DNA from: Shigella phage Sf24
Strand: one strand, 5' to 3'
Length of the DNA: 64,000 bases
Sequence record: MF327008
The notes beneath the pieces were generated by a model. That model was not told the DNA's origin and ran no database searches. It saw only the letters and a program-made list of their open reading frames with translations. How positions within the stretch are numbered: position 1 is the stretch's first letter; the number at the start of each line of letters is the position of its first letter. Position numbers and translations under genes: made by a program. Below are positions 2,755 through 61,699 of this stretch, piece by piece.

Positions 2755-4266
2755 ATGACTGACATTAAAGTACATTTTTATGATTTTAGTCACGTGAGAA
2801 TTGATTGTGAAGAAAGTACATTTCATGAACTCCGTGATTTCTTTAGCTTTGAAGCTGATGGGTATCGTTTTAATCCGAAATACAAATATGGCCACTGGGA
2901 TGGACGAATCCGTCTTTTAGATTATAATCGTCTTCTTCCATTCGGCTTAGTCGGGCAAATTAAAAAGTTCTGTGATAACTTTGGCTATAAAGCCTGGATT
3001 GACCCGCAAATTAACGAAAAAGAAGAATTATCAAGAAAAGATTTTGATGAATGGCTTTCTAAATTAGAAATCTATTCAGGAAATAAAAGAATTGAACCAC
3101 ACTGGTATCAAAAAGATGCAGTGTTCGAAGGATTAGTTAATCGTCGTAGAATTCTTAATCTTCCAACATCCGCTGGTAAATCGTTAATTCAAGCTCTGCT
3201 TGCTCGGTATTATTTGGAAAATTATGAAGGTAAAATTCTTATCATTGTTCCAACAACTGCTCTGACAACTCAGATGGCTGATGACTTTGTTGACTATCGT
3301 TTATTCAGTCATGCAATGATAAAGAAAATTGGTGGCGGAGCATCAAAAGATGATAAATATAAAAATGATGCACCAGTCGTTGTTGGTACATGGCAAACTG
3401 TAGTAAAACAACCAAAAGAATGGTTCTCACAGTTTGGAATGATGATGAATGATGAATGCCATCTTGCTACAGGAAAAAGTATTTCATCTATCATATCAGG
3501 TTTAAATAACTGCATGTTCAAATTTGGTCTATCTGGTTCATTACGTGATGGCAAAGCCAATATCATGCAGTATGTTGGAATGTTTGGTGAAATATTTAAG
3601 CCAGTAACGACTTCTAAGTTAATGGAAGATGGACAAGTAACTGAGCTAAAAATTAATAGTATTTTTCTTCGCTATCCCGATGAGTTCACTACTAAATTAA
3701 AGGGAAAAACTTATCAAGAAGAAATAAAAATTATTACGGGGCTTAGTAAAAGAAATAAATGGATCGCTAAATTAGCTATTAAGCTTGCGCAAAAAGATGA
3801 AAACGCTTTTGTCATGTTTAAACATGTATCGCACGGTAAAGCTATTTTCGATTTAATTAAAAATGAATACGATAAAGTTTATTACGTATCAGGGGAAGTT
3901 GATACCGAAACACGCAATATAATGAAAACCTTAGCTGAAAATGGTAAAGGAATAATTATAGTAGCTAGTTATGGTGTATTTTCTACTGGTATTTCAGTTA
4001 AAAATCTGCATCACGTTGTTTTAGCGCACGGTGTTAAATCAAAAATCATTGTATTGCAAACAATCGGTCGTGTATTACGTAAGCATGGTTCTAAAACAAT
4101 CGCAACAGTCTGGGACCTCATAGATGATTGCGGTGTTAAGCCAAAATCTGCTAATACGAAAAAGAAATACGTTCATTTGAACTATCTTTTAAAACATGGC
4201 ATTGATCGTATTCAGCGCTACGCAGATGAAAAATTTAATTACGTAATGAAAACAGTTAATTTATAA
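2755..4266 (+). CDS. uvsW: UvsW RNA-DNA and DNA-DNA helicase (SF2)
   Basis: 503 aa; N-terminus MTDIKVHFYDFSHVRIDCEE..., Walker A-like TSAGKS and DECH box; late promoter upstream. Confidence 0.92.
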   Translation: MTDIKVHFYDFSHVRIDCEESTFHELRDFFSFEADGYRFNPKYKYGHWDGRIRLLDYNRLLPFGLVGQIKKFCDNFGYKAWIDPQINEKEELSRKDFDEWLSKLEIYSGNKRIEPHWYQKDAVFEGLVNRRRILNLPTSAGKSLIQALLARYYLENYEGKILIIVPTTALTTQMADDFVDYRLFSHAMIKKIGGGASKDDKYKNDAPVVVGTWQTVVKQPKEWFSQFGMMMNDECHLATGKSISSIISGLNNCMFKFGLSGSLRDGKANIMQYVGMFGEIFKPVTTSKLMEDGQVTELKINSIFLRYPDEFTTKLKGKTYQEEIKIITGLSKRNKWIAKLAIKLAQKDENAFVMFKHVSHGKAIFDLIKNEYDKVYYVSGEVDTETRNIMKTLAENGKGIIIVASYGVFSTGISVKNLHHVVLAHGVKSKIIVLQTIGRVLRKHGSKTIATVWDLIDDCGVKPKSANTKKKYVHLNYLLKHGIDRIQRYADEKFNYVMKTVNL

Positions 4267-4283
4267 GGGCTTCGGCCCTTTGG
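4267..4283 (+). terminator. hairpin between uvsW and uvsW.1
   Basis: GGGC-UUCG-GCCC then UUUGG; weak T-tract. Confidence 0.4.
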
Positions 4284-13269: not shown

Positions 13270-15326
13270 TACATTTTGAACTTTTTAGACATTCCGTTGA
13301 TGTTAACCAAAGAAGCTAAGATTTGAGAAACTTCGTTTTCCTCTTCTTTTGATTCTTCTACAAGGAATTGATTAAATCCAGCCATTGGACGAACTTCACC
13401 AGTTTCCATCAAATGATCGCCATCATATACTGATTCTTCTAATTGCTCAGAAGGAGGAACGATTGTGCCTTCGATTAGATACTTATTATAAGCAGTTTCT
13501 TTCATCATGTACGTGCTCACTTTATTAATCTTCAGTAAAATTCCACGTGGTAGAATAACTTCAGCTTCTGATGGAAATCCTGATAAATGACCTGGAACGA
13601 TAACTTTGATTCGCTCAGCCCCTTTAATTACCATACCTACGCTAGTTTCAGCGTCTTCATTCGCATAAGCAGAGTGACTACCCATATGCATTAAATCTTC
13701 AGCATCAACTGAACCTTCTCCTTCGCCAGAAAATACTGCGCCGGAATCATCTAGAGCCATATAGTTTTTACCATGCTCACCGAAGATATTTGGTTTAAGC
13801 GATGTGGATACGAAGTTCTTGAAATAGAACATTTTATTTTCAATATTATGACGTAAAGTTTTAAAAGTAACTTCTTGTCCACGATAAAGCGTAGTTCCTG
13901 GAGGAAGAACTGAACCTTTAGCGAATGCAGAATCCATTGTCTCGATGTGTTTAATAGCTCGTTCCATGTATTCTTCACGGGTAGAATCTGGTTTACCCAA
14001 GAGGAACGAGTTCATTTCAACATATGAATCTGCACAATAATCTTCAATTACATCAGACTCAGCCTGAGTTAATCCTTTTGGAGTTACTTCGGTGCTTGCG
14101 TATTCATATGCCTGAGCAGCAGATTCATTAATCAATTTATAAATGCTATTCATGACAAATTGAATAATAGCTGTCTTTTCATCTGACGTAGCTTTAGAAC
14201 CTTTAACTAAATCATTGATAATTTTCTTAATAACATCAAAGCTATTAGAAATATTAATGTCAGCGAGATCGCTCAAAATTTTATCGGTTTTATAATCAAA
14301 AAATTCTTTATTCTTTAAATATTCTTGAGAACCTTGATATGTTATATCGCTCTGCAGTCTGATAGACGGATCACGTAAACGCGCATGGGCCAATGCAATA
14401 TGATTTCGGAAGCTTTCTAGTTCATAATCGTTAGATTTAAAACGAGAAGCACTTCTCATACCACCGATAGCTCCTTTGCTGAAGTTGGAACCAATCTGAA
14501 TAACACCAGAGTTCATTGGTCCTTCTGCTTTATATACAGGAACTTTAGATTCAAACTCTTGATATTTCTTGGCAGCGAAGCTATCACCCTGAAGTGAAGC
14601 ATCAACAGTAGAATATTGAGCTTGTGCTGCTAATCGACGACTAATTTTAGTTTTCTGAATAACAGCTTGATCCGTACGCTTATCATTTTCTAAAGCAATA
14701 GAAGCAGCAACTGCGACAGCTTTAGGAACAGCATTACCTGTTTTAACGTCTACATAAACATCACCAACCTTTGATTCAACTTTTGTGAATAACTCAGCTG
14801 AAATAGGAGGTACACCTGGAATGTCTTCTAAATTGGCATTTTTACGGTAAACCATAATATATGCGTACTTTTTATCATAGTCCCAGATTTCCTTTAAAAG
14901 AACATATCGGCCTGCTCCTTTAGTACGTACTAAACGGTCAGCAATAACTTGCATTTGACGAGCAGCGCCATTTGTTTTACTCTTTAGTACGCGGAATAAG
15001 CATGCATCAATTTTATACTGTTTCATTGTTTGAAGAGCAGTATCAAAAACAGCATTAATGGCGCCAATTGGATTTCCACCCAAGTTTTTAAGTTTAACTA
15101 ATGATAGTTTCTCATTGACACCTATCATTACGATATGCATCATTTTGTCGCCTGGCTTAACGTTTTTATTCGTATCACCGCCAGAGGTGTATGTACAAAA
15201 TCTAAATCCAGGAAGCACGCTTTCTTCACCGGCTTGAATAGCAAAAATTTGTGGTATTTTATGCTTAGGATTTAAGTTAACAACCGGCGCCGAAGCGCCG
15301 TCAAATAATTCTGTAATAAGTTCCAT
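13269..15326 (-). CDS. Alt-like ADP-ribosyltransferase paralog, 685 aa
   Basis: Shares N-terminus (MELITELFD...LNPK.KIPQIF) and domain order with the adjacent alt; R-S-E triad elements YRG, FVSTSL and SEAEVILPRG. Confidence 0.85.
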   Translation of the reverse strand: MELITELFDGASAPVVNLNPKHKIPQIFAIQAGEESVLPGFRFCTYTSGGDTNKNVKPGDKMMHIVMIGVNEKLSLVKLKNLGGNPIGAINAVFDTALQTMKQYKIDACLFRVLKSKTNGAARQMQVIADRLVRTKGAGRYVLLKEIWDYDKKYAYIMVYRKNANLEDIPGVPPISAELFTKVESKVGDVYVDVKTGNAVPKAVAVAASIALENDKRTDQAVIQKTKISRRLAAQAQYSTVDASLQGDSFAAKKYQEFESKVPVYKAEGPMNSGVIQIGSNFSKGAIGGMRSASRFKSNDYELESFRNHIALAHARLRDPSIRLQSDITYQGSQEYLKNKEFFDYKTDKILSDLADINISNSFDVIKKIINDLVKGSKATSDEKTAIIQFVMNSIYKLINESAAQAYEYASTEVTPKGLTQAESDVIEDYCADSYVEMNSFLLGKPDSTREEYMERAIKHIETMDSAFAKGSVLPPGTTLYRGQEVTFKTLRHNIENKMFYFKNFVSTSLKPNIFGEHGKNYMALDDSGAVFSGEGEGSVDAEDLMHMGSHSAYANEDAETSVGMVIKGAERIKVIVPGHLSGFPSEAEVILPRGILLKINKVSTYMMKETAYNKYLIEGTIVPPSEQLEESVYDGDHLMETGEVRPMAGFNQFLVEESKEEENEVSQILASLVNINGMSKKFKM

Positions 15327-17455: not shown

Positions 17456-17475
17456 AATTAAAGGCCCGAAGGCCT
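17451..17475 (-). terminator. hairpin terminator between the ligase operon and alt
   Basis: AGGCC-CGAA-GGCCU hairpin with A/T-rich tract on the minus strand. Confidence 0.45.
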
Positions 17476-17664
17476 TTAATAATCTATTGGTAAGAGAGTA
17501 CGATATATTTCAAACTTTGGACCTTTTTCATAGGCATCAAATGTTTCTGTGAATTTATTATAAGCATATGCATCTATAAATTCAATCATAATTTGTGATA
17601 CAGAAGTAGAAACATCTCCACCTTCTTTTTGAGCCACGACAATTGTTTCTAAGTAAGCTTTCAT
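17476..17664 (-). CDS. hypothetical protein, 62 aa
   Basis: ORF directly downstream of and overlapping the DNA ligase stop; hairpin at its 3' end. Confidence 0.5.
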   Translation of the reverse strand: MKAYLETIVVAQKEGGDVSTSVSQIMIEFIDAYAYNKFTETFDAYEKGPKFEIYRTLLPIDY

Positions 17665-21364: not shown

Positions 21365-21405
21365 AGTATTTTCCTCAGTAAGGGGCCGAAGCCCCTCATT
21401 TTATT

Positions 21406-22248: not shown

Positions 22249-22277
22249 AAAATAAAAAAGGACTCCCGAAGGAGTCC
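22249..22277 (-). terminator. rho-independent terminator
   Basis: GGACUCC-CGAA-GGAGUCC hairpin followed on the minus strand by UUUUUUAUUUU. Confidence 0.8.
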
Positions 22278-22282
22278 TCAAC

Positions 22283-25896: not shown

Positions 25897-25897
<1 letters not shown>
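25700..25897 (-). CDS. hypothetical protein, 65 aa (cd.5)
   Basis: ORF overlapping pseT stop. Confidence 0.5.
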
Positions 25898-27122
<1,225 letters not shown>

Positions 27123-28554: not shown

Positions 28555-30142
<1,588 letters not shown>

Positions 30143-37827: not shown

Positions 37828-38733
37828 TTAAAGGTCATTCAAAAGGTCATCCAGGTCCGTGTCATCAGCACTAGATGAACTACCAGAGCTTGAGCTCATA
37901 AAATCATCTTCAGTTTTTGTATTGAAGTCATCAACATTGAATGCATCCAAATCATCAGCAACTTTATCAGCTTTCTTAGCAGCAGTTGCAGCGGCACCGC
38001 CCATCACAGCAGTTCCCATAACTTGACCGAATTTAGTATTCAGTTCTTCAAACGATTTGAATTTATCTTTAGAAGTCATTTCAGAAAGGTCAACCATTTG
38101 TTCGAACAGTTCTTTCTGGAAAGATTCATCGTCAATGTTTGGAATCGCAGATTGATTCAGGAATTTAGATTCGTCGTAGTTACTAAATCCAGAAACTTGT
38201 TTAACTTTCAGTACAAAGTTAGCACCTTCCCACGGACAAGTTACATCAACCGGAGTTTCACCCATTTCAACATCAACTGCAATCATTGCATTGATTTTAT
38301 CCCAGATTTTCTTACCGAAACGGTATTTAAATACTTTACCTTCATTTTCTGGAGCAGCTGGGTCTTTTACAACAAGAATGTTAGCCCAGTAAGAAGTTTT
38401 ACGTTTAACAAGACCGTATTCTTTATTGTCAGTGTTGTACAAATCATTTTTACTGATATACTGACATACTGGGCAAGAATCGTAATCACCATGGGTAGAT
38501 GAACATGTTTCAATATACCATTTACCATTTTTCTTGAAACCGTGATTTACAAGAATTGCGAATGGTGCTTGTTCATCATTTTTAGACGGAAGAAAACGAA
38601 TTACTGCTTGACCGTTACCCGCATTATCGAGTTTCAGTTTCCACTCGCCTTTATCTTCAGAAGAAAAACCTTTATTGCCATTCAGTTTAGCCATTTGTGC
38701 AGCAAGTTCAGCAGTAGATTTACGTTTAAACAT
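37828..38733 (-). CDS. 32: single-stranded DNA-binding protein gp32
   Basis: 301 aa; acidic C-terminal tail; conserved translational operator upstream; terminator downstream. Confidence 0.93.
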
Positions 38734-51282: not shown

Positions 51283-51310
51283 AGAGGGCTTCGGCCCTCT
51301 AAGGATTTTT
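51283..51310 (+). terminator. hairpin terminator after gene 37
   Basis: AGAGGGC-UUCG-GCCCUCU hairpin; T-tract begins 5 nt later. Confidence 0.5.
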
Positions 51311-55555: not shown

Positions 55556-55585
55556 ATAGTACCACAGTATGCTTTGGTTGTAAAC
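55556..55585 (-). promoter_or_regulatory. early promoter for motA
   Basis: Minus strand GTTTAC-N14-GTG-G-TACTAT with A/T-rich upstream element; near-identical to elements at 37726 and 59367. Confidence 0.65.
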
Positions 55586-55610: not shown

Positions 55611-55636
55611 AAAAAAGGGAGAGCCGAGGCTCTCCC
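55611..55636 (-). terminator. rho-independent terminator upstream of the motA promoter
   Basis: GGGAGAGCC / GGCUCUCCC hairpin followed on the minus strand by UUUUUU. Confidence 0.65.
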
Positions 55637-55641
55637 TAAAA

Positions 55642-55791
55642 TTACTGCTCAAACGCGATAACTATCGTGATAACACGTTGAATTCCGAACGCAAGAAGAC
55701 CTCCTGCTACGGCTGGAACAACACCTAAACCAGCCAGTAAAATGCTACCGGATACTAATGCAGCGCTTGTAATACCTATGAATGGACTCAT
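55642..55791 (-). CDS. small hydrophobic protein, 49 aa
   Basis: Own translation MSPFIGITSAALVSGSILLAGLGVVPAVAGG...; start overlaps gene 52 stop (ATGA). Confidence 0.4.
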   Translation of the reverse strand: MSPFIGITSAALVSGSILLAGLGVVPAVAGGLLAFGIQRVITIVIAFEQ

Positions 55792-57116
55792 TTGATTTCC
55801 TCTAAATCTTTGGTGTATTCTGTAACTACATCAGTAGTTTTCCAATATTCGTTTTCTTCTTTTTTAGCTTTAGCTTCTTCAGCAAGTTTCTTTGCTTCAT
55901 CAGAAGTCATATGAAAAATATTCATACCAACTAGTTTATCAACATAAGAAGAATACATCTCAATTTTAGAAAGTTCTTCGGTCAGTTCTTTACGAGTTTT
56001 ACCCTGTACAACAATTTCACCTGAAATTACTTTCTTAATGAAATGTGCCTTGGCAAAGGCTAAACGAAAAGCTGACTCAGTTTCTTTGATTTTGTTATCA
56101 ATTCGTTTTTGGACATAAGTTTTACGAATTTCAACAAAGTCTTTAATTAAATCGACTACGTTATCGTAAACTTGTAGTTTTCCTTTCTCATTAATAACCG
56201 TAATATTCTGAGAACGACGCTCAATCAACCCGAAGTCTTTCATAATTTTTGCATGGCGTTCTTCTTCATTATCGCTCAAAGAATATTCTTTACGGAATTT
56301 AACTTTGAAGCCAAAACCATGCTCACCACAAGCATCATCCCACGTAATGAAGCCTTTATCTTCAAGCGGGTCTAAGATTTTACTCACATAAGTTTCACGA
56401 TCATACTTATACGGAATCTCAGTGATATGCATTTGAGTTCGTGAAGTAAACTTGTACGTTCCACGAATTTCATATTGACCGTCAATTTCAACGACTTCAC
56501 CGCGAAATTCTGGGAATTCTACCTTCGGTTTAGTTACTTTCTTTCCTTGAAGAGCTTGCAATACAGCTTTCTTGACAGAAGAAACGCTATGAGGAAGAAT
56601 GTAAGTTGCATAACCAGTTGCAATACCGGAAACACCGTTAAGAAGAACAGTAGGAATAATAGGCAAATAGAAAGCAGGCGGAATGTGTTCTTTATCTTGA
56701 TGTACCGGAGCATATTCAGTATCTTTATATACGTTATAGAAATTTTTACTTACACGAGCAAAAATATAACGACTTGCCGCTGCTTTTTGAACGGTACGAG
56801 AACCAAAGTTTCCTTGACCATCTAACAGAGGAAAGTTATTATTCCAAGTATTAGCCATCAAAGCACCTGCGTCTTGTGCAGAGTTTTCACCATGATGATA
56901 TCCAAGGTCTGCTACACCACCTGCAATAGAAGCGAGTTTGTGAAACTTATCTTTATTTCCTCGTGCCAAATCAAGAGCTCGAGAAATAACAAATCGTTGA
57001 ACTGGCTTAAATCCATCAATCATATTTGGGATAGCACGATTTTCAACCGTGTACATAGCATAAGCCAATGCTTCATTATCAATGATACTTTTTAAATCGC
57101 GATTATTCAGTTGCAT
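55788..57116 (-). CDS. 52: DNA topoisomerase II medium subunit gp52
   Basis: 442 aa, T4 gp52 length; type II topoisomerase breakage-reunion sequence. Confidence 0.92.
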   Translation of the reverse strand: MQLNNRDLKSIIDNEALAYAMYTVENRAIPNMIDGFKPVQRFVISRALDLARGNKDKFHKLASIAGGVADLGYHHGENSAQDAGALMANTWNNNFPLLDGQGNFGSRTVQKAAASRYIFARVSKNFYNVYKDTEYAPVHQDKEHIPPAFYLPIIPTVLLNGVSGIATGYATYILPHSVSSVKKAVLQALQGKKVTKPKVEFPEFRGEVVEIDGQYEIRGTYKFTSRTQMHITEIPYKYDRETYVSKILDPLEDKGFITWDDACGEHGFGFKVKFRKEYSLSDNEEERHAKIMKDFGLIERRSQNITVINEKGKLQVYDNVVDLIKDFVEIRKTYVQKRIDNKIKETESAFRLAFAKAHFIKKVISGEIVVQGKTRKELTEELSKIEMYSSYVDKLVGMNIFHMTSDEAKKLAEEAKAKKEENEYWKTTDVVTEYTKDLEEIK

Positions 57117-57120
57117 AAAT

Positions 57121-57261
57121 TTACCATACTAGTGAATGTAGTGCCATAATAACATCAGAAATGAAAAGCACGACTTGAATTAATCCGAACATTACTCCAT
57201 AATATAGTGCTACCAATAAAGTAGCAAGGGCTAATGAATAGCCCAAGATTTTCTTAATCAT
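57121..57261 (-). CDS. small membrane peptide, 46 aa
   Basis: Own translation MIKKILGYSLALATLLVALYYGVMFGLIQVVLF...; start overlaps ac stop. Confidence 0.4.
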   Translation of the reverse strand: MIKKILGYSLALATLLVALYYGVMFGLIQVVLFISDVIMALHSLVW

Positions 57262-57412
57262 TAGTAGATAACAACACAAATGTTAAATATGCACACATAC
57301 CCTGGGCTAAAGCTTGTGAAAACACACTGCTAGCATCGATACAGATAGTTAAAACACATGCTACTATCCAACAAATAAATGAAATAACTCCTAATAATTT
57401 TGCGATATTCAT
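57254..57412 (-). CDS. ac: Ac acridine-sensitivity membrane protein
   Basis: 52 aa hydrophobic peptide MNIAKLLGVISFICWIVACVLTICIDASSV... directly upstream of stp. Confidence 0.65.
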   Translation of the reverse strand: MNIAKLLGVISFICWIVACVLTICIDASSVFSQALAQGMCAYLTFVLLSTND

Positions 57413-57419
57413 ATTTTCC

Positions 57420-57500
57420 TCACTGGCGTCCGAAGACGCCTTTGTTTTTAAGATTGTTACGATAGAACTGCATCACATGTTCGTTATGGAAATTACTCAT
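57420..57500 (-). CDS. stp: Stp peptide (activator of host PrrC anticodon nuclease)
   Basis: 26 aa; own translation [26 protein letters not shown] differs from remembered T4 Stp at one position. Confidence 0.85.
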
Positions 57501-57666
57501 ACACACCACACATTTTGCATAAACGTTCAAAACAGATAAATCCGCCACCTACACACATCACGACAGCCACATTATCATTAAGAGGTAGACCTAAAGCCGT
57601 AAAGATTCCAGTCAATGTGAATAAGGCTAAAACTAATAGGTAACCCATTACAAATAGAGCTTTCAT
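57493..57666 (-). CDS. small hydrophobic protein, 57 aa
   Basis: Own translation [30 protein letters not shown]...; start overlaps ndd stop (TAATG), stop overlaps stp start. Confidence 0.4.
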
Positions 57667-58124
57667 TAGTATGCCTGCAAAACAAATTTAAAGTTATCAG
57701 CCAACATACGGTTCATTTCTTCAAGTGTTTGATACTCAGAATGATGATTACGAGTAAACGCTAAAGCTAACTGACCTTTTCCAAATCCTGTCGTCAAAGG
57801 TTTCATCTTAGAAGCAGGAAGATAAAATACTGCATATGGAACATTGTTATTTGCAATAGTACGCGCAAGCTGAGACCGACGTTGACGAATATGACTTAGA
57901 ACTGCGCTGAATCCTTGCTTAGAACGTTGATTACCTACATAAAATCGTGCAGACACACATGGATTACTAAATGGACGACCATCTAATTTACTTACTAAAA
58001 AGTAAAATCCAGGTTTAGATAAAATATCTTTATGTGGAACTCCCAAAAACCATTCACCACCCTTGATTGTACCAATAACAGTAGCACCTGCATCATTCAG
58101 ATCAGTAACAGTCATATATTTCAT
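57666..58124 (-). CDS. ndd: Ndd nucleoid disruption protein
   Basis: 152 aa; sequence [28 protein letters not shown]... Confidence 0.9.
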
Positions 58125-58182
58125 ATTAATTTCCTCTAAATTATTTTCTACTCCAAGGCCGCATGAATACGCGGCCGATAAA

Positions 58183-58398
58183 TTAATCGTCGCAGTCGAC
58201 GCTCAATTCCCAAAACTCTTCTACAGTATAAGTTTCAGTATCATTTTCAATACAGAAACGTTCATTACTGTTATTTGTTAAAGTAGCATTAACTGTCGGT
58301 TTCTCGCTAGTGCTCTTAAGAGGTGAAATACGAATTAACTGATCACCGTTATCTAAACAAAAAATTTCACCAACTTTTACATCTTTAAAACTTTTCAT
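58183..58398 (-). CDS. hypothetical protein, 71 aa
   Basis: ORF. Confidence 0.5.
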
Positions 58399-58513
58399 AA
58401 TTCACCTCAAGGAGTATAAAATCCAAATGCAGTTGTTGACCATCCCATCCAATATGGAAAATTTGCACCAATGTAAAACATAAGAATATAAAACCAAATG
58501 TTTAGTAAATTCA

Positions 58514-58732
58514 TTATTTTACACCATTCCAAATTGTTTCAACTACAGATTTTAAGCCATTTTGATGAATGTCCATTCCGACTACCGCCATCAAATAGAT
58601 TCCAACTACAACTGAACCTAAGGCAAAAATCAGCATGAAAATGAATAAAGCCGGAAAAATATTATCGAAAAACCATTCAATAAATGTAAAAGCACTGCGT
58701 TTACGCTTCATATTTTCCTCACATAAATCCAA
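58514..58732 (-). CDS. hypothetical membrane protein, 72 aa
   Basis: ORF with two hydrophobic segments. Confidence 0.5.
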   Translation of the reverse strand: MDLCEENMKRKRSAFTFIEWFFDNIFPALFIFMLIFALGSVVVGIYLMAVVGMDIHQNGLKSVVETIWNGVK

Positions 58733-58832
58733 AGTAAGCGTTTAATACATCAATCATTAAAACGATTGGGAATATACTCAAAACTACTAGTATTATAACT
58801 ACATTCCATATAGCTTTAATAATCTTTTTCAT
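58719..58832 (-). CDS. small membrane peptide, 37 aa
   Basis: Start set at MKKIIKAIWNVVIIL... because the longer supplied ORF runs through the early-promoter motif at 58861-58890. Confidence 0.4.
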   Translation of the reverse strand: MKKIIKAIWNVVIILVVLSIFPIVLMIDVLNAYFGFM

Positions 58833-58860
58833 TTTCTGTTCCTCCGTAGTTGATAGGGTA

Positions 58861-58890
58861 ATAATACCACAGAGGAACAGTCTTGTAAAC
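58861..58890 (-). promoter_or_regulatory. early promoter
   Basis: Minus strand GTTTAC-N14-GTG-G-TATTAT. Confidence 0.55.
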
Positions 58891-59075
58891 AACTTTTTTA
58901 AAAATATTCGTAATAAATGTGAATACCAACTACTACTGCTGAAACTTGCGCAACCCACCACGCACAAGCAATAAGCACAGAATTCAAAATTTTCATAATA
59001 ACCTCATCACAAAAGTAAATGTTAAACAAATTAATGGAATACTAATTAACCAAACGAAACACCACCATAATGAAC

Positions 59076-59339
59076 TCATAGTTCAATCTCAGCGATTTCC
59101 AAGTGTTTTTGTTTTATTGCCTTTTTAACACAATCATGGACTAAATATGACCATGAATCATTATATTCTCCATTAACTAATCGTTGGAGATCTTCACGTG
59201 ATGATAAGTAAGGTTGATCTGATTCCCATTTTGATAAAAATACTGCAGTAAAAATATCTCCTTCATCTGTAGTTGAAGTCGTAAATGCAATAAATTCACC
59301 GGTAATTTTATGTTTAGCGTAATAAAATTTAAATTTCAT
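59076..59339 (-). CDS. hypothetical protein, 87 aa
   Basis: ORF with early-promoter motif upstream. Confidence 0.5.
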   Translation of the reverse strand: MKFKFYYAKHKITGEFIAFTTSTTDEGDIFTAVFLSKWESDQPYLSSREDLQRLVNGEYNDSWSYLVHDCVKKAIKQKHLEIAEIEL

Positions 59340-59366
59340 TTTTACTCCTCCGTAGCTGATAGTTGT

Positions 59367-59396
59367 ATAGTACCACGGTCCTTGTGGTATGTAAAC
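59367..59396 (-). promoter_or_regulatory. early promoter
   Basis: Minus strand GTTTAC-N14-GTG-G-TACTAT upstream of the 59076-59339 gene. Confidence 0.6.
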
Positions 59397-59412
59397 CGTT
59401 TTGTGAAAATTT

Positions 59413-59970
59413 TTAAATGGAAAGATACCATCCGTTGTAGTTGCTTTTTCTTACAACCTTACGAAGGTCTTCTCTATCACCGATGAACTTCGGAGTGTAC
59501 TGGATGACACCTGGGTGAATTTCTTTAGTGTTGAATATAATTATACAGTCAGCGACCTGATGATTCAGAATGGGCCCTAGATTTATTCCAGAACCATATG
59601 GATACTCTCCGCTGCATCCTGTTGTTACAGAAATCCAACGTGAGTCAGTTTGATGTGTCTTAACTTCTACACGAAGCCCGCAGTATCTTGGATGCGCCAA
59701 TACATCCCATGCGTATGTATACGGGTCATTAACATCCTCTTGGCCTTTGTTAACATATCCGCTTAGCCAATCTGCTACAAAAAACTCTGCGTACACCGCG
59801 ATACGACATCTTTCAATAACTTCTGCTTTATCCTGATTTGGATTTTGTTTTAAAGAGTATCTTGCTGTATCAGCAATTTTGACCTTCATTTCACTAGTCA
59901 AGTCATTGTTCGATAGGGTAAATGTCGGAATCTGAAATAGTCTCTGTAAACCCGGATTCGTTTTCTGCAT
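59413..59970 (-). CDS. denB: endonuclease IV
   Basis: 185 aa, T4 DenB length; sequence MQKTNPGLQRLFQIPTFTLSNNDL... Confidence 0.9.
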   Translation of the reverse strand: MQKTNPGLQRLFQIPTFTLSNNDLTSEMKVKIADTARYSLKQNPNQDKAEVIERCRIAVYAEFFVADWLSGYVNKGQEDVNDPYTYAWDVLAHPRYCGLRVEVKTHQTDSRWISVTTGCSGEYPYGSGINLGPILNHQVADCIIIFNTKEIHPGVIQYTPKFIGDREDLRKVVRKSNYNGWYLSI

Positions 59971-60232
59971 TTAGACTTTCCTTTTTACCGCTGAGATAAG
60001 CGTTATATACTTTAAGAGTGCCGTAATAAATTCGGTCATTTTCATCTAAAGACTCACGGTCAAGTTCATCGAGTTCCTTTTTATCCATGACTATAACATC
60101 ATTGCAGTAAAGAAACCCAAGTTTTTCGTGACCAAACTCAAATTTATTGCAATACACAATATTAGCGTGATGATTACCGTGCAGTTTAATCTCTTTTATG
60201 TCGGAATCACCGATATTCATACAATAAATCAT
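59903..60232 (-). CDS. hypothetical protein, 109 aa; its 5' end lies in the first copy of the tandem duplication
   Basis: ORF MIYCMNIGDSDIKEIKLHGNHHANIVYCNKFEFGHEK... Confidence 0.5.
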   Translation of the reverse strand: MIYCMNIGDSDIKEIKLHGNHHANIVYCNKFEFGHEKLGFLYCNDVIVMDKKELDELDRESLDENDRIYYGTLKVYNAYLSGKKESLNAENESGFTETISDSDIYPIEQ

Positions 60233-60497
60233 AATTTTTCCTTAAAACAAAAGGGCCGAAGCCCCTTATTTTTATTTGAATTGTGCAATTCTTTTTTCTA
60301 AACAATCTGCGTAAGATTTCATTGAGATGAACTGTGAAAGCAGTAATTCTTGCTACTATAACATCATTGCAGTAAAGAAACCCAAGTTTTTCGTGACCAA
60401 ACTCAAATTTATTGCAATACACAATATTAGCGTGATGATTACCGTGCAGTTTAATCTCTTTTATGTCGGAATCACCGATATTCATACAATAAATCAT
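60207..60497 (-). pseudogene. duplicated 5' fragment of the preceding gene, frameshifted at the repeat junction
   Basis: First 48 codons identical to the 59903-60232 ORF; the frame then reads through the copied terminator hairpin. Confidence 0.5.
60242..60276. terminator. bidirectional hairpin terminator (copy 1 of duplicated element)
   Basis: GGGCC-GAA-GCCCC hairpin flanked by A-rich and T-rich tracts. Confidence 0.55.
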
Positions 60498-60506
60498 AAT
60501 TTTTCC

Positions 60507-60541
60507 TTAAAACAAAAGGGCCGAAGCCCCTTATTTTTATT
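60507..60541. terminator. bidirectional hairpin terminator (copy 2)
   Basis: Identical to 60242-60276; lies after the 64-aa ORF. Confidence 0.55.
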
Positions 60542-60731
60542 TGAATTGTGCAATTCTTTTTTCTAAACAATCTGCGTAAGATTTCATTGAGATGAACTGT
60601 GAAAGCAGTAATTCTTGCTCAACTTCATTAATCGTTAGAAACTTTGTGCTTTCTAAAAATTTGCTCAGTGCATTAATTTTGAGCATTAATTGATCGTATT
60701 CTTCTTTTACTCGTGCTTGATAACCTAACAT
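60537..60731 (-). CDS. hypothetical protein, 64 aa
   Basis: ORF downstream of rIIB; its last ~27 codons lie in the second copy of the duplication. Confidence 0.5.
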   Translation of the reverse strand: MLGYQARVKEEYDQLMLKINALSKFLESTKFLTINEVEQELLLSQFISMKSYADCLEKRIAQFK

Positions 60732-60760
60732 AATTTTCCTTAGTTAAGGGCCGAAGCCCC

Positions 60761-61699
60761 TTATTTAAATTGTTCAGTAACGTCTTCAACTACTTCGTAT
60801 TGGCAAGTACGCATTTTAGCATCGTTGTAATCAATCGGAATTGATACTACATCGCGAGGATGTACTTTAACTTTTACAACTCGGCTGGTTGAACTACCAA
60901 AGTGACGAATATAAGATTTAGAACACACATGCAGACCACGAGAACAAGTTTGTGTATCATCGTCATTCACACGAGTACGTGGCATTTTAACTACTTTACC
61001 AGGACTGTTATCAAAAGTATTTGAATGACAGTCAAAGTAATTACTACGAACTACTTTCCAAGCATAGAAGTAGCCATCTTCTGTAATTTCAATATCGTTT
61101 GCTACCAAGAAATCAAAGAGTCGAGATACCGCTTTTTGGCTCGGGTTTTCCAGCAGATTTTCCAAGAACGGAAAATAAAATTCAAAGTTTTCACCTTTTT
61201 CCATCGAATCGAGAATACGATCAACTAAACCAGACCGCAATTCAATATTTTGATAGAACAAGCTTCCACCTTCAATTCGAACATCACCGGAAATATATTT
61301 TTCAACAGCGCGACGAACGTTAATTTTTTGTGCTGCTTCTTCCAATTTATCTGCAACAAGCAGATTAAGAATTTCCTGGAAGTTTGAATGAGTATTAGGA
61401 GTTGCGTTATAAGTTACACCGTCAACAGTAATTGAAATGAATTTTTTAGATGCATTCCAAATAATGTCAGATTTAGCAACTGGAGCAATAACTGCATCGC
61501 TATTAACTTTAACTGTAATATCACCGCTAATAGTAACTTTAGGGCGTTTAGCTTCTTCAGCATTTTTCAAAACACGACGGATTGTGTCAACCGATACATC
61601 CTTCCAATAAGCCAATTCCTGTTGGGTGTAATTACCGCTTGAATACAGTTTAACAATTTCAGCTTGTTCGTTTTTGGTCAGGCATTTAATATTGTACAT
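60761..61699 (-). CDS. rIIB: rIIB protein
   Basis: 312 aa, T4 rIIB length; sequence MYNIKCLTKNEQAEIVKLYSSGNYTQQELA... Confidence 0.92.
   Translation of the reverse strand: MYNIKCLTKNEQAEIVKLYSSGNYTQQELAYWKDVSVDTIRRVLKNAEEAKRPKVTISGDITVKVNSDAVIAPVAKSDIIWNASKKFISITVDGVTYNATPNTHSNFQEILNLLVADKLEEAAQKINVRRAVEKYISGDVRIEGGSLFYQNIELRSGLVDRILDSMEKGENFEFYFPFLENLLENPSQKAVSRLFDFLVANDIEITEDGYFYAWKVVRSNYFDCHSNTFDNSPGKVVKMPRTRVNDDDTQTCSRGLHVCSKSYIRHFGSSTSRVVKVKVHPRDVVSIPIDYNDAKMRTCQYEVVEDVTEQFK

Follow-up and report, generated by a model that had tools for sequence, protein, structure and literature searches.

Our subject is a cluster of very small genes in Shigella phage Sf24 (sequence record MF327008), located between positions 55,642 and 59,339 of a 64,000-nucleotide stretch of DNA, hereafter the window. 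The cluster is the 52-ndd-denB accessory region of a T4-like phage, and its ten tiny open reading frames (ORFs) are genuine coding genes. Very probably, the whole is an early block for ten micro-proteins, of 26 to 65 amino acids, among which eight would be membrane peptides acting on the host. When the region from 55.0 to 59.5 kilobases (kb) was compared with phage records, 909 matched, 483 of them with a query coverage of at least 80%. The closest relative, Escherichia phage SholemSchwarzbard, is 98.6% identical over the full length, and annotations of related records name the neighbours as motA, gene 52 (topoisomerase II medium subunit), ac, stp, ndd, and denB. Hence, this is the 52-ndd-denB block of a Tequatrovirus. 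The minus strand carries every gene of the block.

All of the small frames listed in the first-pass annotation of the window are present, on the minus strand, at matching coordinates. They correspond one-to-one with genes of T4 (NC_000866), except for a 57-residue ORF between ndd and stp. Order, strand, start/stop overlaps, and promoters match those of T4 motA.1, 52.1, ac, stp, and ndd.2 to ndd.6 (NC_000866 163730-166996), and the proteins are 90-100% identical to their T4 counterparts. The window differs from T4 in having the extra 57-residue gene, of 162 base pairs (bp), between ndd and stp, an 87-residue ORF before ndd.6, and one intact 65-residue gene (hereafter the DUF7248 gene) in place of ndd.3/ndd.2a. 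In addition, Ac has an extra threonine (PP01 type) and Stp has the change T19N. All ten tiny ORFs match PHROG families (E < 1e-17). Three also have Pfam matches: Stp (PF08133), 52.1 (DUF7396), and the 65-residue product (DUF7248). Comparison with the T4 52.1 and ndd annotations, as the first-pass annotation had suggested, thus resolves the frames into named T4 genes and one catalogued PHROG family. Hence, there is nothing new in the cluster, and no new kind of element was revealed by the analysis; named T4 genes, a catalogued family, and a known class of hairpin account for it. Note that a large share of the genes of T4-like phages have no assigned function, and that the 52-ndd-denB block is dense in such genes.

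We envisage that two sigma-70-type early promoters (59396 and 58890) and a terminator (55616-55637) would organise the block into early units. The eight membrane peptides would enter the inner membrane within minutes of infection. There, each may dock onto a host inner-membrane machine and alter envelope physiology, for which the proposed action of Ac on AcrAB-TolC is the precedent. One or more of these peptides could account for the stimulation of phosphatidylglycerol synthesis that is lost with the T4 deletion sa-delta-9 (see below).

Purifying selection and layout of the small genes

To assess coding status we used 23 related loci. These came from T4, T2, T6, RB27, ime09, Sf23, pSs-1, five IMG/VR contigs, and members of other genera (Dhaka-, Gapriver-, Mosig-, Karam-, Jiaoda-, Gelderland-, and Hadassahvirus). 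Scanning IMG/VR with Ndd returned five near-identical loci only; diversity was therefore drawn from GenBank phage records. Nei-Gojobori substitutions were counted along a minimum spanning tree, and the within-Tequatrovirus set consisted of gapless alignments. Across genera, each tiny ORF had an omega (nonsynonymous to synonymous ratio) between 0.07 and 0.46 (p < 1e-5), and the value for ndd itself was 0.35. Within Tequatrovirus, the nine tiny ORFs with T4 names gave a pooled omega of 0.13 (p = 4e-44) in the called frame, compared with 1.24 and 1.86 in the shifted frames. The 57-residue ORF, tested separately, gave 0.38 (p = 6e-15). Individual values were 0.16 for motA.1 (p = 4e-7), 0.15 for ndd.2 (p = 1e-8), 0.10 for the DUF7248 gene (p = 4e-16), and 0.07 for ndd.5 (p = 3e-6). 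For ac and ndd.6 they were 0.03 and 0.08 within Tequatrovirus; for ndd.4, 0.42 across genera (p = 3e-7). The 87-residue ORF gave 0.37. A 29-residue ORF at 59342-59431 served as a negative control. Its omega was 1.02 (p = 0.62), and its ends vary among relatives.

In Tequatrovirus loci the tiny frames are nearly always intact, with start and stop unchanged. Homologues of the tiny genes reach up to six other genera, and those of 52.1, ac, the 57-residue ORF, the DUF7248 gene, ndd.4, and ndd.6 are 30-60% identical at distances where the DNA is unalignable. A lack of conservation had been named at the outset as the result that would count against the small frames; what we found was frame-specific purifying selection and homologues in other genera. 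We conclude that the frames are genes. In a T4 time-course, the transcripts of motA.1, 52.1, ac, stp, and ndd.2 to ndd.6 are classed as early, and Ndd.1 was detected as an early protein (PMC9697503 Table S2). As for the suggestion that most of the frames fall below automated cut-offs, most are annotated in the closest record, but annotation is indeed uneven between records. For instance, PP925840 has no entry for ndd.6, and ime09 has none for 52.1, stp, or ndd.2.

The genes are tightly packed, and the translationally coupled layout claimed for them is apparent as overlapping stop and start codons at seven junctions. These are ATGA at 52/motA.1, ndd.6/ndd.5, and at the junction of the 87-residue ORF with ndd.6; TAATG where ndd meets the 57-residue ORF and where the DUF7248 gene meets ndd.2; the 8-nucleotide ATGATTAA at ac/52.1; and ATGAGTAA between the 57-residue ORF and stp. 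The remaining junctions are spacers of 4-8 nucleotides with GAGG-type Shine-Dalgarno sequences, and ndd.4 has a strong one (GGAGGA). Conversely, no Shine-Dalgarno sequence precedes 52.1, and a good one is also lacking for stp, the 57-residue ORF, ndd.2, and ndd.6. In all five, the start codon overlaps the upstream stop codon or is at most a few bases away from it. This coincidence of poor Shine-Dalgarno sequences with overlaps fits termination-reinitiation, by which these five are probably translated; coupling would then occur in vivo.

Early promoters of T4 were sought with the pattern GTTTAC-N(14-18)-TGGTAYWAT. There are four matches in the window, against 0 expected, and three of the four are in this region (Table 1). 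The intrinsic terminator after motA.1 is predicted to end a long early/middle transcription unit. A hairpin that follows ndd.1 (58160-58200) gains nothing in stability over shuffled sequence (z = -0.08), and an Rfam scan of 55.0-61.5 kb gave nothing above the gathering score. Two annotated frames lie over early promoters: a 29-residue 'hypothetical protein' (59342-59431, in PP925840) and a 114-bp 'ndd.5' (58816-58929, in ime09). Neither is probably a gene; the first is the frame in which the coding signature is missing.

Putative membrane peptides, Stp, and the stp hairpin

The cluster had been described as one of tiny hydrophobic ORFs. Transmembrane-like segments were called from the maximum 19-residue Kyte-Doolittle (KD) mean, with a cut-off of at least 2.1 for counting enrichment. 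Eight products have a bilayer-length hydrophobic segment, with maxima between 2.17 and 3.05: motA.1 (2.26), 52.1, Ac, the 57-residue protein, the DUF7248 gene product, Ndd.4 (3.05), Ndd.5, and Ndd.6. The description fits these eight but not Stp, which is hydrophilic (grand average of hydropathy -1.14, maximum KD -0.99), and ndd.2 is borderline (maximum KD 1.29). Over the whole window, in six frames, 25 of the 273 ATG-initiated ORFs of 25-70 residues reach the cut-off. Nine of the 25 fall in 55.6-59.1 kb, eight of them being the tiled genes; the ninth is out of frame, inside gene 52. Clustering of this degree exceeds chance. We infer that, soon after infection, the host inner membrane is the most likely destination of the eight peptides. 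By the same measure Stp is a hydrophilic, soluble peptide.

Features of the individual peptides can be summarised as follows. The 52.1 product probably has two hydrophobic helices, and matches DUF7396 with 81.9 bits (cut-off 27). Its gene is separated by 4 nucleotides from the gene 52 ATG. In Dhaka-, Gapriver-, Mosig-, Karam-, Jiaoda-, and Gelderlandvirus, gene 52 is directly preceded by an ORF of 44-46 residues ending IW/VW, so that the synteny of 52.1 with gene 52 is kept in seven genera. The idea that 52.1 is more conserved than gp52 was discarded: it is in Dhakavirus (89-93% versus 80%) but not in Karam- and Jiaodavirus (31-57% versus 67-68%). The ndd.2 homologue in a Klebsiella phage retains a PYW.GWS motif. 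The DUF7248 gene product has a KRKR N-terminus and a single transmembrane segment, and its polar C-terminal tail is conserved; its Pfam match (PF23906) covers residues 6-63 of 65 with 71.9 bits (cut-off 27). Ndd.4, Ndd.5, and Ndd.6 have a single transmembrane segment each. A KAIWN...LSIFPIV motif is conserved for ndd.4 in Dhaka- and Gaprivervirus, and ndd.6 homologues occur in Dhaka-, Gapriver-, Mosig-, and Gelderlandvirus. We also considered a lipoprotein reading of Ac and Ndd.5, which have lipobox-like IVAC and LIAC sequences, and rejected it because the cysteine is not conserved in alignments of homologues. Searches of Pfam, NCBIfam, and PDB sequences found no functional family for the peptides beyond DUF7396, DUF7248, and PF08133.

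Ac, encoded between stp and 52.1, is 96% identical to T4 Ac and 100% identical to the Ac of many relatives. It has two hydrophobic helices, and the extra threonine, near the C-terminus, marks the PP01-type allele. E. coli becomes sensitive to acriflavine when Ac is expressed, and deleting ac makes T4 resistant; the PP01-type allele with the added threonine behaves like that of T4 (10.1101/2025.06.30.662393). In the model proposed by the same preprint, AcrAB-TolC is blocked by membrane-inserted Ac (10.1101/2025.06.30.662393), a view repeated in a 2026 PNAS paper (PMC13250531). In Sf23, Ac is only 45% identical to that in the window. It resembles the Mosigvirus type (compared with OLB35), inside near-identical Tequatrovirus flanks, and both alleles carry the loop motif E(S/T)SVF.QA.AQG. 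AcrZ is a small bacterial inner-membrane regulator that binds AcrB. Ac resembles it in mode: it too is a peptide of about 50 residues forming one or two helices, and its proposed target is a large membrane machine. The comparison is one of mode, not of sequence, and for Ac the proposed effect is inhibition of efflux, not its tuning.

A second phenotype maps to the block. Kutter et al. report that T4 no longer stimulates phospholipid synthesis, above all that of phosphatidylglycerol, when it carries the viable deletion sa-delta-9, which removes the genes from 52.1 to denB; several products of the deleted block are predicted membrane proteins (PMC6071114). Our gene list is thus a short list of candidates for two old T4 phenotypes: acridine sensitivity and phosphatidylglycerol stimulation.

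The Stp protein matches the anticodon-nuclease activator family PF08133 over its full length, residues 1-26 (70 bits, cut-off 25, E = 9.5e-20), and PHROG 6763 with E = 3.5e-20. Residues 1-18 are identical to T4, T19N being the only difference. How Stp works has been described, and its function is carried by the N-terminal 18 residues; the C-terminal part is polymorphic and largely dispensable (PMC3014915). Among the loci compared, Stp was found only in Tequatro-, Dhaka-, and Gaprivervirus. The first-pass annotation placed Stp, polynucleotide kinase (pseT), and RNA ligase 1 (rnlA) together in the window, on the phage side of the conflict with the host anticodon nuclease PrrC. All three have Pfam matches, and the statement is correct and textbook T4 biology. 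Since stp, pseT, and rnlA are in one window, the phage side of the conflict is complete. By inhibiting type IC restriction Stp would trip PrrC, and pseT and rnlA would repair the damage. Note that the mechanical GTG start of rnlA is probably too far upstream. A 301-residue ORF (37828-38733) is gp32 and not pseT.

The stp gene was also said to contain a hairpin. A 16-nucleotide inverted repeat is present in stp (57425-57440), but the letters originally quoted, GGCGUCCGAAGACGCC, are those of the plus, antisense, strand. On the minus strand the stp mRNA reads GGCGUCUUCGGACGCC, which is GGCGUC-UUCG-GACGCC. Hence, in the sense strand of stp, there is a UUCG tetraloop closed by C-G on a GC-rich 6-bp stem (predicted -11.5 kcal/mol, z = -3.5). 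The hairpin spans codons 21-25 (GVFGR) and the first base of codon 26. It ends 1 nucleotide before the stop codon, the GA of which begins the ac Shine-Dalgarno sequence. In the whole window CTTCGG occurs 33 times versus 12.6 expected (2.6-fold), and no shuffle reached 33. Eleven GC-rich C(UUCG)G hairpins, that in stp included, are found in the window and all are on the local sense strand. Most are found where a gene ends or shortly before a ribosome-binding site, and several, that of stp among them, directly precede a GAGGAAAA site.

Tuerk et al. reportedly gave the first description of C(UUCG)G mRNA hairpins in T4, in 1988, and the stp hairpin belongs to this class of very stable structures. 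Like the hairpins at 21379 and 60746, it is placed just upstream of a Shine-Dalgarno sequence. Unlike the class in general, it is within a coding sequence, in the dispensable C-terminal part of stp, rather than in an intercistronic spacer; there is one other such case, at 15285. Of the Stp-bearing loci, only T2 and T6, in which the C-terminus of Stp is different, lack the hairpin. In DK-13 the loop is UUUG and, in Dhakavirus, the G-C pair at the base of the stem is G-U. In the sense transcript, where the ac ribosome-binding site follows closely, the hairpin most likely serves as a barrier to decay or as a structural insulator.

Alternative explanations

Might the tiny frames be chance ORFs in AT-rich DNA, in which promoters, terminators, and RNA structure are conserved rather than peptides? 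Such frames do occur here. The 29-residue ORF over an early promoter has an omega close to 1, the 114-bp 'ndd.5' of ime09 overlies the 58890 promoter, and the peptides are undetected in the T4 proteome. However, for the ten genes the idea is already contradicted by what was observed. Synonymous changes are in excess in the called frame only, start and stop positions are kept, and protein identity of 30-57% persists across genera where DNA alignment fails. Furthermore, hydrophobic ORFs are enriched locally by about 6.6-fold (9 observed versus 1.37 expected in 3.5 kb). We give this explanation almost no weight. It is also improbable that the inverted repeat in stp is a plus-strand intrinsic terminator, of antisense (late) transcription, rather than part of the stp/ac mRNA. 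On the plus strand a T-run, TTTGTTTTTA, comes after the stem, which a terminator scan picked up; the plus-strand RNA folds nearly as well as the sense RNA (-10.3 kcal/mol). However, the C-G-closed UUCG loop forms on the minus, sense, strand, as do the loops of 11 out of 11 GC-rich C(UUCG)G hairpins on their local sense strand. The T-run is the reverse complement of Lys/Asn codons in Stp, a nearby plus-strand promoter or gene was not found, and the hairpin is absent from T2 and T6.

A further alternative accepts the genes and their location, but supposes that the peptides act directly on the bilayer, as membrane-damaging or membrane-sealing effectors. These could resemble type I toxins, holins or antiholins, or Imm-like agents of superinfection exclusion. 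Size, one or two transmembrane helices, and early expression are all reminiscent of such peptides, and the block adjoins rIIB/rIIA, which are concerned with membrane integrity. In addition, permeability and lipid synthesis both change upon T4 infection, an effect that sa-delta-9 modifies. Against this, searches of Pfam, NCBIfam, and the PDB gave no similarity to holin, toxin, Imm, or Sp families, and expression of Ac alone is reported to be sensitising, not lethal. Moreover, conserved polar motifs (ESSVF.QA.AQG in Ac, NGLKSVVE.IWNG in the DUF7248 gene product, and FER..K..GVY in the 57-residue family) resemble specific interaction surfaces. We regard direct action on the bilayer as unlikely. 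Taken with patchy gene content, and with knock-outs in laboratory strains, the polar motifs fit accessory, host-dependent roles rather than core ones.

Several observations weigh against our preferred explanation, an early block of coding genes with membrane peptides acting on the host. The case for membrane insertion is built on a simple hydropathy scale. The link between Ac and AcrAB-TolC is a preprint proposal only, and we infer the host partners of all the peptides. In the T4 proteome, Ndd and Ndd.1 were detected but not the products of motA.1, 52.1, ac, stp, and ndd.2 to ndd.6 (PMC9697503 Table S2). Direct protein evidence is genetic or biochemical, and concerns Stp and Ac alone among the tiny genes. 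For ndd.4 there are just 8 substitutions within Tequatrovirus, and the resulting omega (1.1) is too thin for a test. Laboratory phages carry knock-outs: in T2 (PV958097), nonsense codons interrupt ac and the DUF7248 gene, and frameshifts affect the ac C-terminus in T6 and the DUF7248 gene in T4. Hence, these tiny genes are dispensable in laboratory hosts. As for the hairpin, its conservation is inseparable from that of the protein, with 1 of 5 third positions variable compared to 10 of 19 upstream (Fisher p = 0.33). Two-sided compensatory changes in the stem are absent, the Dhakavirus change in the basal pair being the sole one.

Beyond this, we tentatively propose that the micro-ORFs are a battery of plug-in regulators, each for a different host machine, with one or more being the phosphatidylglycerol factor, and that the 57-residue family is an ancestral Tevenvirinae member of the battery, having been lost by T4, T2, and T6. 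We hold this combined proposal to be possible rather than probable. Candidates for the phosphatidylglycerol factor may then be 52.1, the DUF7248 gene, ndd.4 to ndd.6, and the 57-residue family.

The gene absent from T4 and further features

In T4, the ndd stop codon is joined directly to the stp start, and the 57-residue gene is absent from T2 and T6 as well as T4. Relative to the window, the T4 indel is a clean 162 bp (57501-57662), with ATGA at both boundaries. With tblastn, 218 phage records gave full-length matches to the ORF, which is beside ndd wherever its position was examined. Identity is below 60% in 183 of the 218 records, and 161 are Klebsiella phages. Just 16 records have identity of at least 99%, compared with about 500 at Tequatrovirus level. 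Given this spread, the family is older and more widespread than Stp. CC31, Melville, KLB8, and a Klebsiella phage each have a homologue of 57-60 residues between gene 52 and ndd, and the family shares the C-terminal motif FER..K..GVY(K/E). The corresponding PHROG family, 5941, includes members from Jiaoda-, Karam-, Gelderland-, and Dhakavirus, and their relatives. The window copy is full-length and, as in those phages, directly downstream of ndd. It differs in being a rare Tequatrovirus member, and has no T4 name.

In Dhakavirus C6, the 57-residue protein is 95% identical to that in the window while Ndd is 62% identical, which argues for modular exchange between genera. Similarly, 52.1, stp, and the 57-residue ORF are 93-96% identical in C6, compared with 81% for gp52. 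These values point to recent exchange of a small module (52.1, stp, and the 57-residue ORF) between Tequatrovirus and Dhakavirus.

Our data also allow some annotations to be cleaned up, namely the T4 ndd.3 remnant, the frames over promoters, the ndd.4 start, and a dioxygenase label. In the T4 reference (NC_000866) there is a 1-nucleotide deletion after codon 2 of the DUF7248 gene (ATGAA-CGT versus ATGAAGCGT). Hence, T4 ndd.3 is an out-of-frame remnant, with ndd.2a restarting at an internal methionine. The gene is intact in T6, RB27, Sf23, pSs-1, and the window. T4 Ndd.4 is 42 residues long, with its start ATG inside the Shine-Dalgarno sequence (ATGGAGGA). Since this ATG is ACG in the window, the start giving 37 residues is the conserved one. 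Ndd.4 is labelled 'naphthalene 1,2-dioxygenase' in the RefSeq entries for RB27 and Sf23, an obvious propagated misannotation. In one IMG/VR contig, ndd.6 is frameshifted. Coordinates of the features are collected in Table 1.

Table 1. Genes and signals of the block, with related features elsewhere in the window (aa, amino acids)
Feature	Position	Strand	Description
motA.1	55642-55791	-	49 aa, Gly-rich, hydrophobic; same position in T4; PHROG 3487, E = 2e-29
gene 52, topoisomerase II medium subunit	55788-57116	-	99% identical to T4 gp52; micro-ORFs on both sides
52.1	57121-57261	-	46 aa; Pfam DUF7396, PHROG 3595
ac	57254-57412	-	52 aa; PHROG 2501, E = 3.7e-25
stp	57420-57500	-	26 aa; Pfam PF08133, PHROG 6763
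57-aa ORF	57493-57666	-	absent from T4; PHROG 5941, E = 2e-27
ndd, nucleoid disruption protein	57666-58124	-	97% identical to T4 Ndd
ndd.1	58183-58398	-	71 aa; soluble, acidic, not hydrophobic
ndd.2	58407-58514	-	35 aa, aromatic-rich; PHROG 4135
DUF7248 gene	58514-58711	-	65 aa; T4 ndd.3 and ndd.2a as one ORF; Pfam PF23906
ndd.4	58719-58832	-	37 aa; PHROG 3098
ndd.5	58898-58996	-	32 aa; PHROG 5011
ndd.6	58993-59079	-	28 aa; PHROG 8851
87-aa ORF	59076-59339	-	soluble, RB69ORF270c-like, absent from T4; first gene of upstream early unit
early promoter	59367-59396	-	before 87-aa ORF
early promoter	58861-58890	-	GTTTACA-N-TGGTATTAT; before ndd.4, predicted to drive ndd.4 and downstream genes
early promoter	55556-55585	-	before motA
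intrinsic terminator	55616-55637	-	after motA.1; 9-bp stem then U-run; -18.9 kcal/mol, z = -5.7
pseT, polynucleotide kinase/phosphatase	25897-26805	-	PrrC counter-measure; Pfam HAD_PNKP (4e-59) and AAA_33
rnlA (gene 63), RNA ligase 1	28555-29715	-	PrrC counter-measure; Pfam T4_Rnl1_C (1e-39) and RNA_lig_T4_1
other CTTCGG/C(UUCG)G sites (examples)	862-879, 4265-4280, 17457-17480, 21379-21398, 22258-22279, 51283-51300, 60746-60761		

Finally, there is a perfect tandem duplication of 265 bp in the neighbouring denB-rIIB interval (60090-60619; 2.0 copies, 100% match). This is either a very recent event or an assembly artefact. The duplicated DNA repeats the 5' half of a 109-residue ORF and a C(UUCG)G hairpin. 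A single copy is present in ime09 and pSs-1, where a 951-bp query spans 684 bp.

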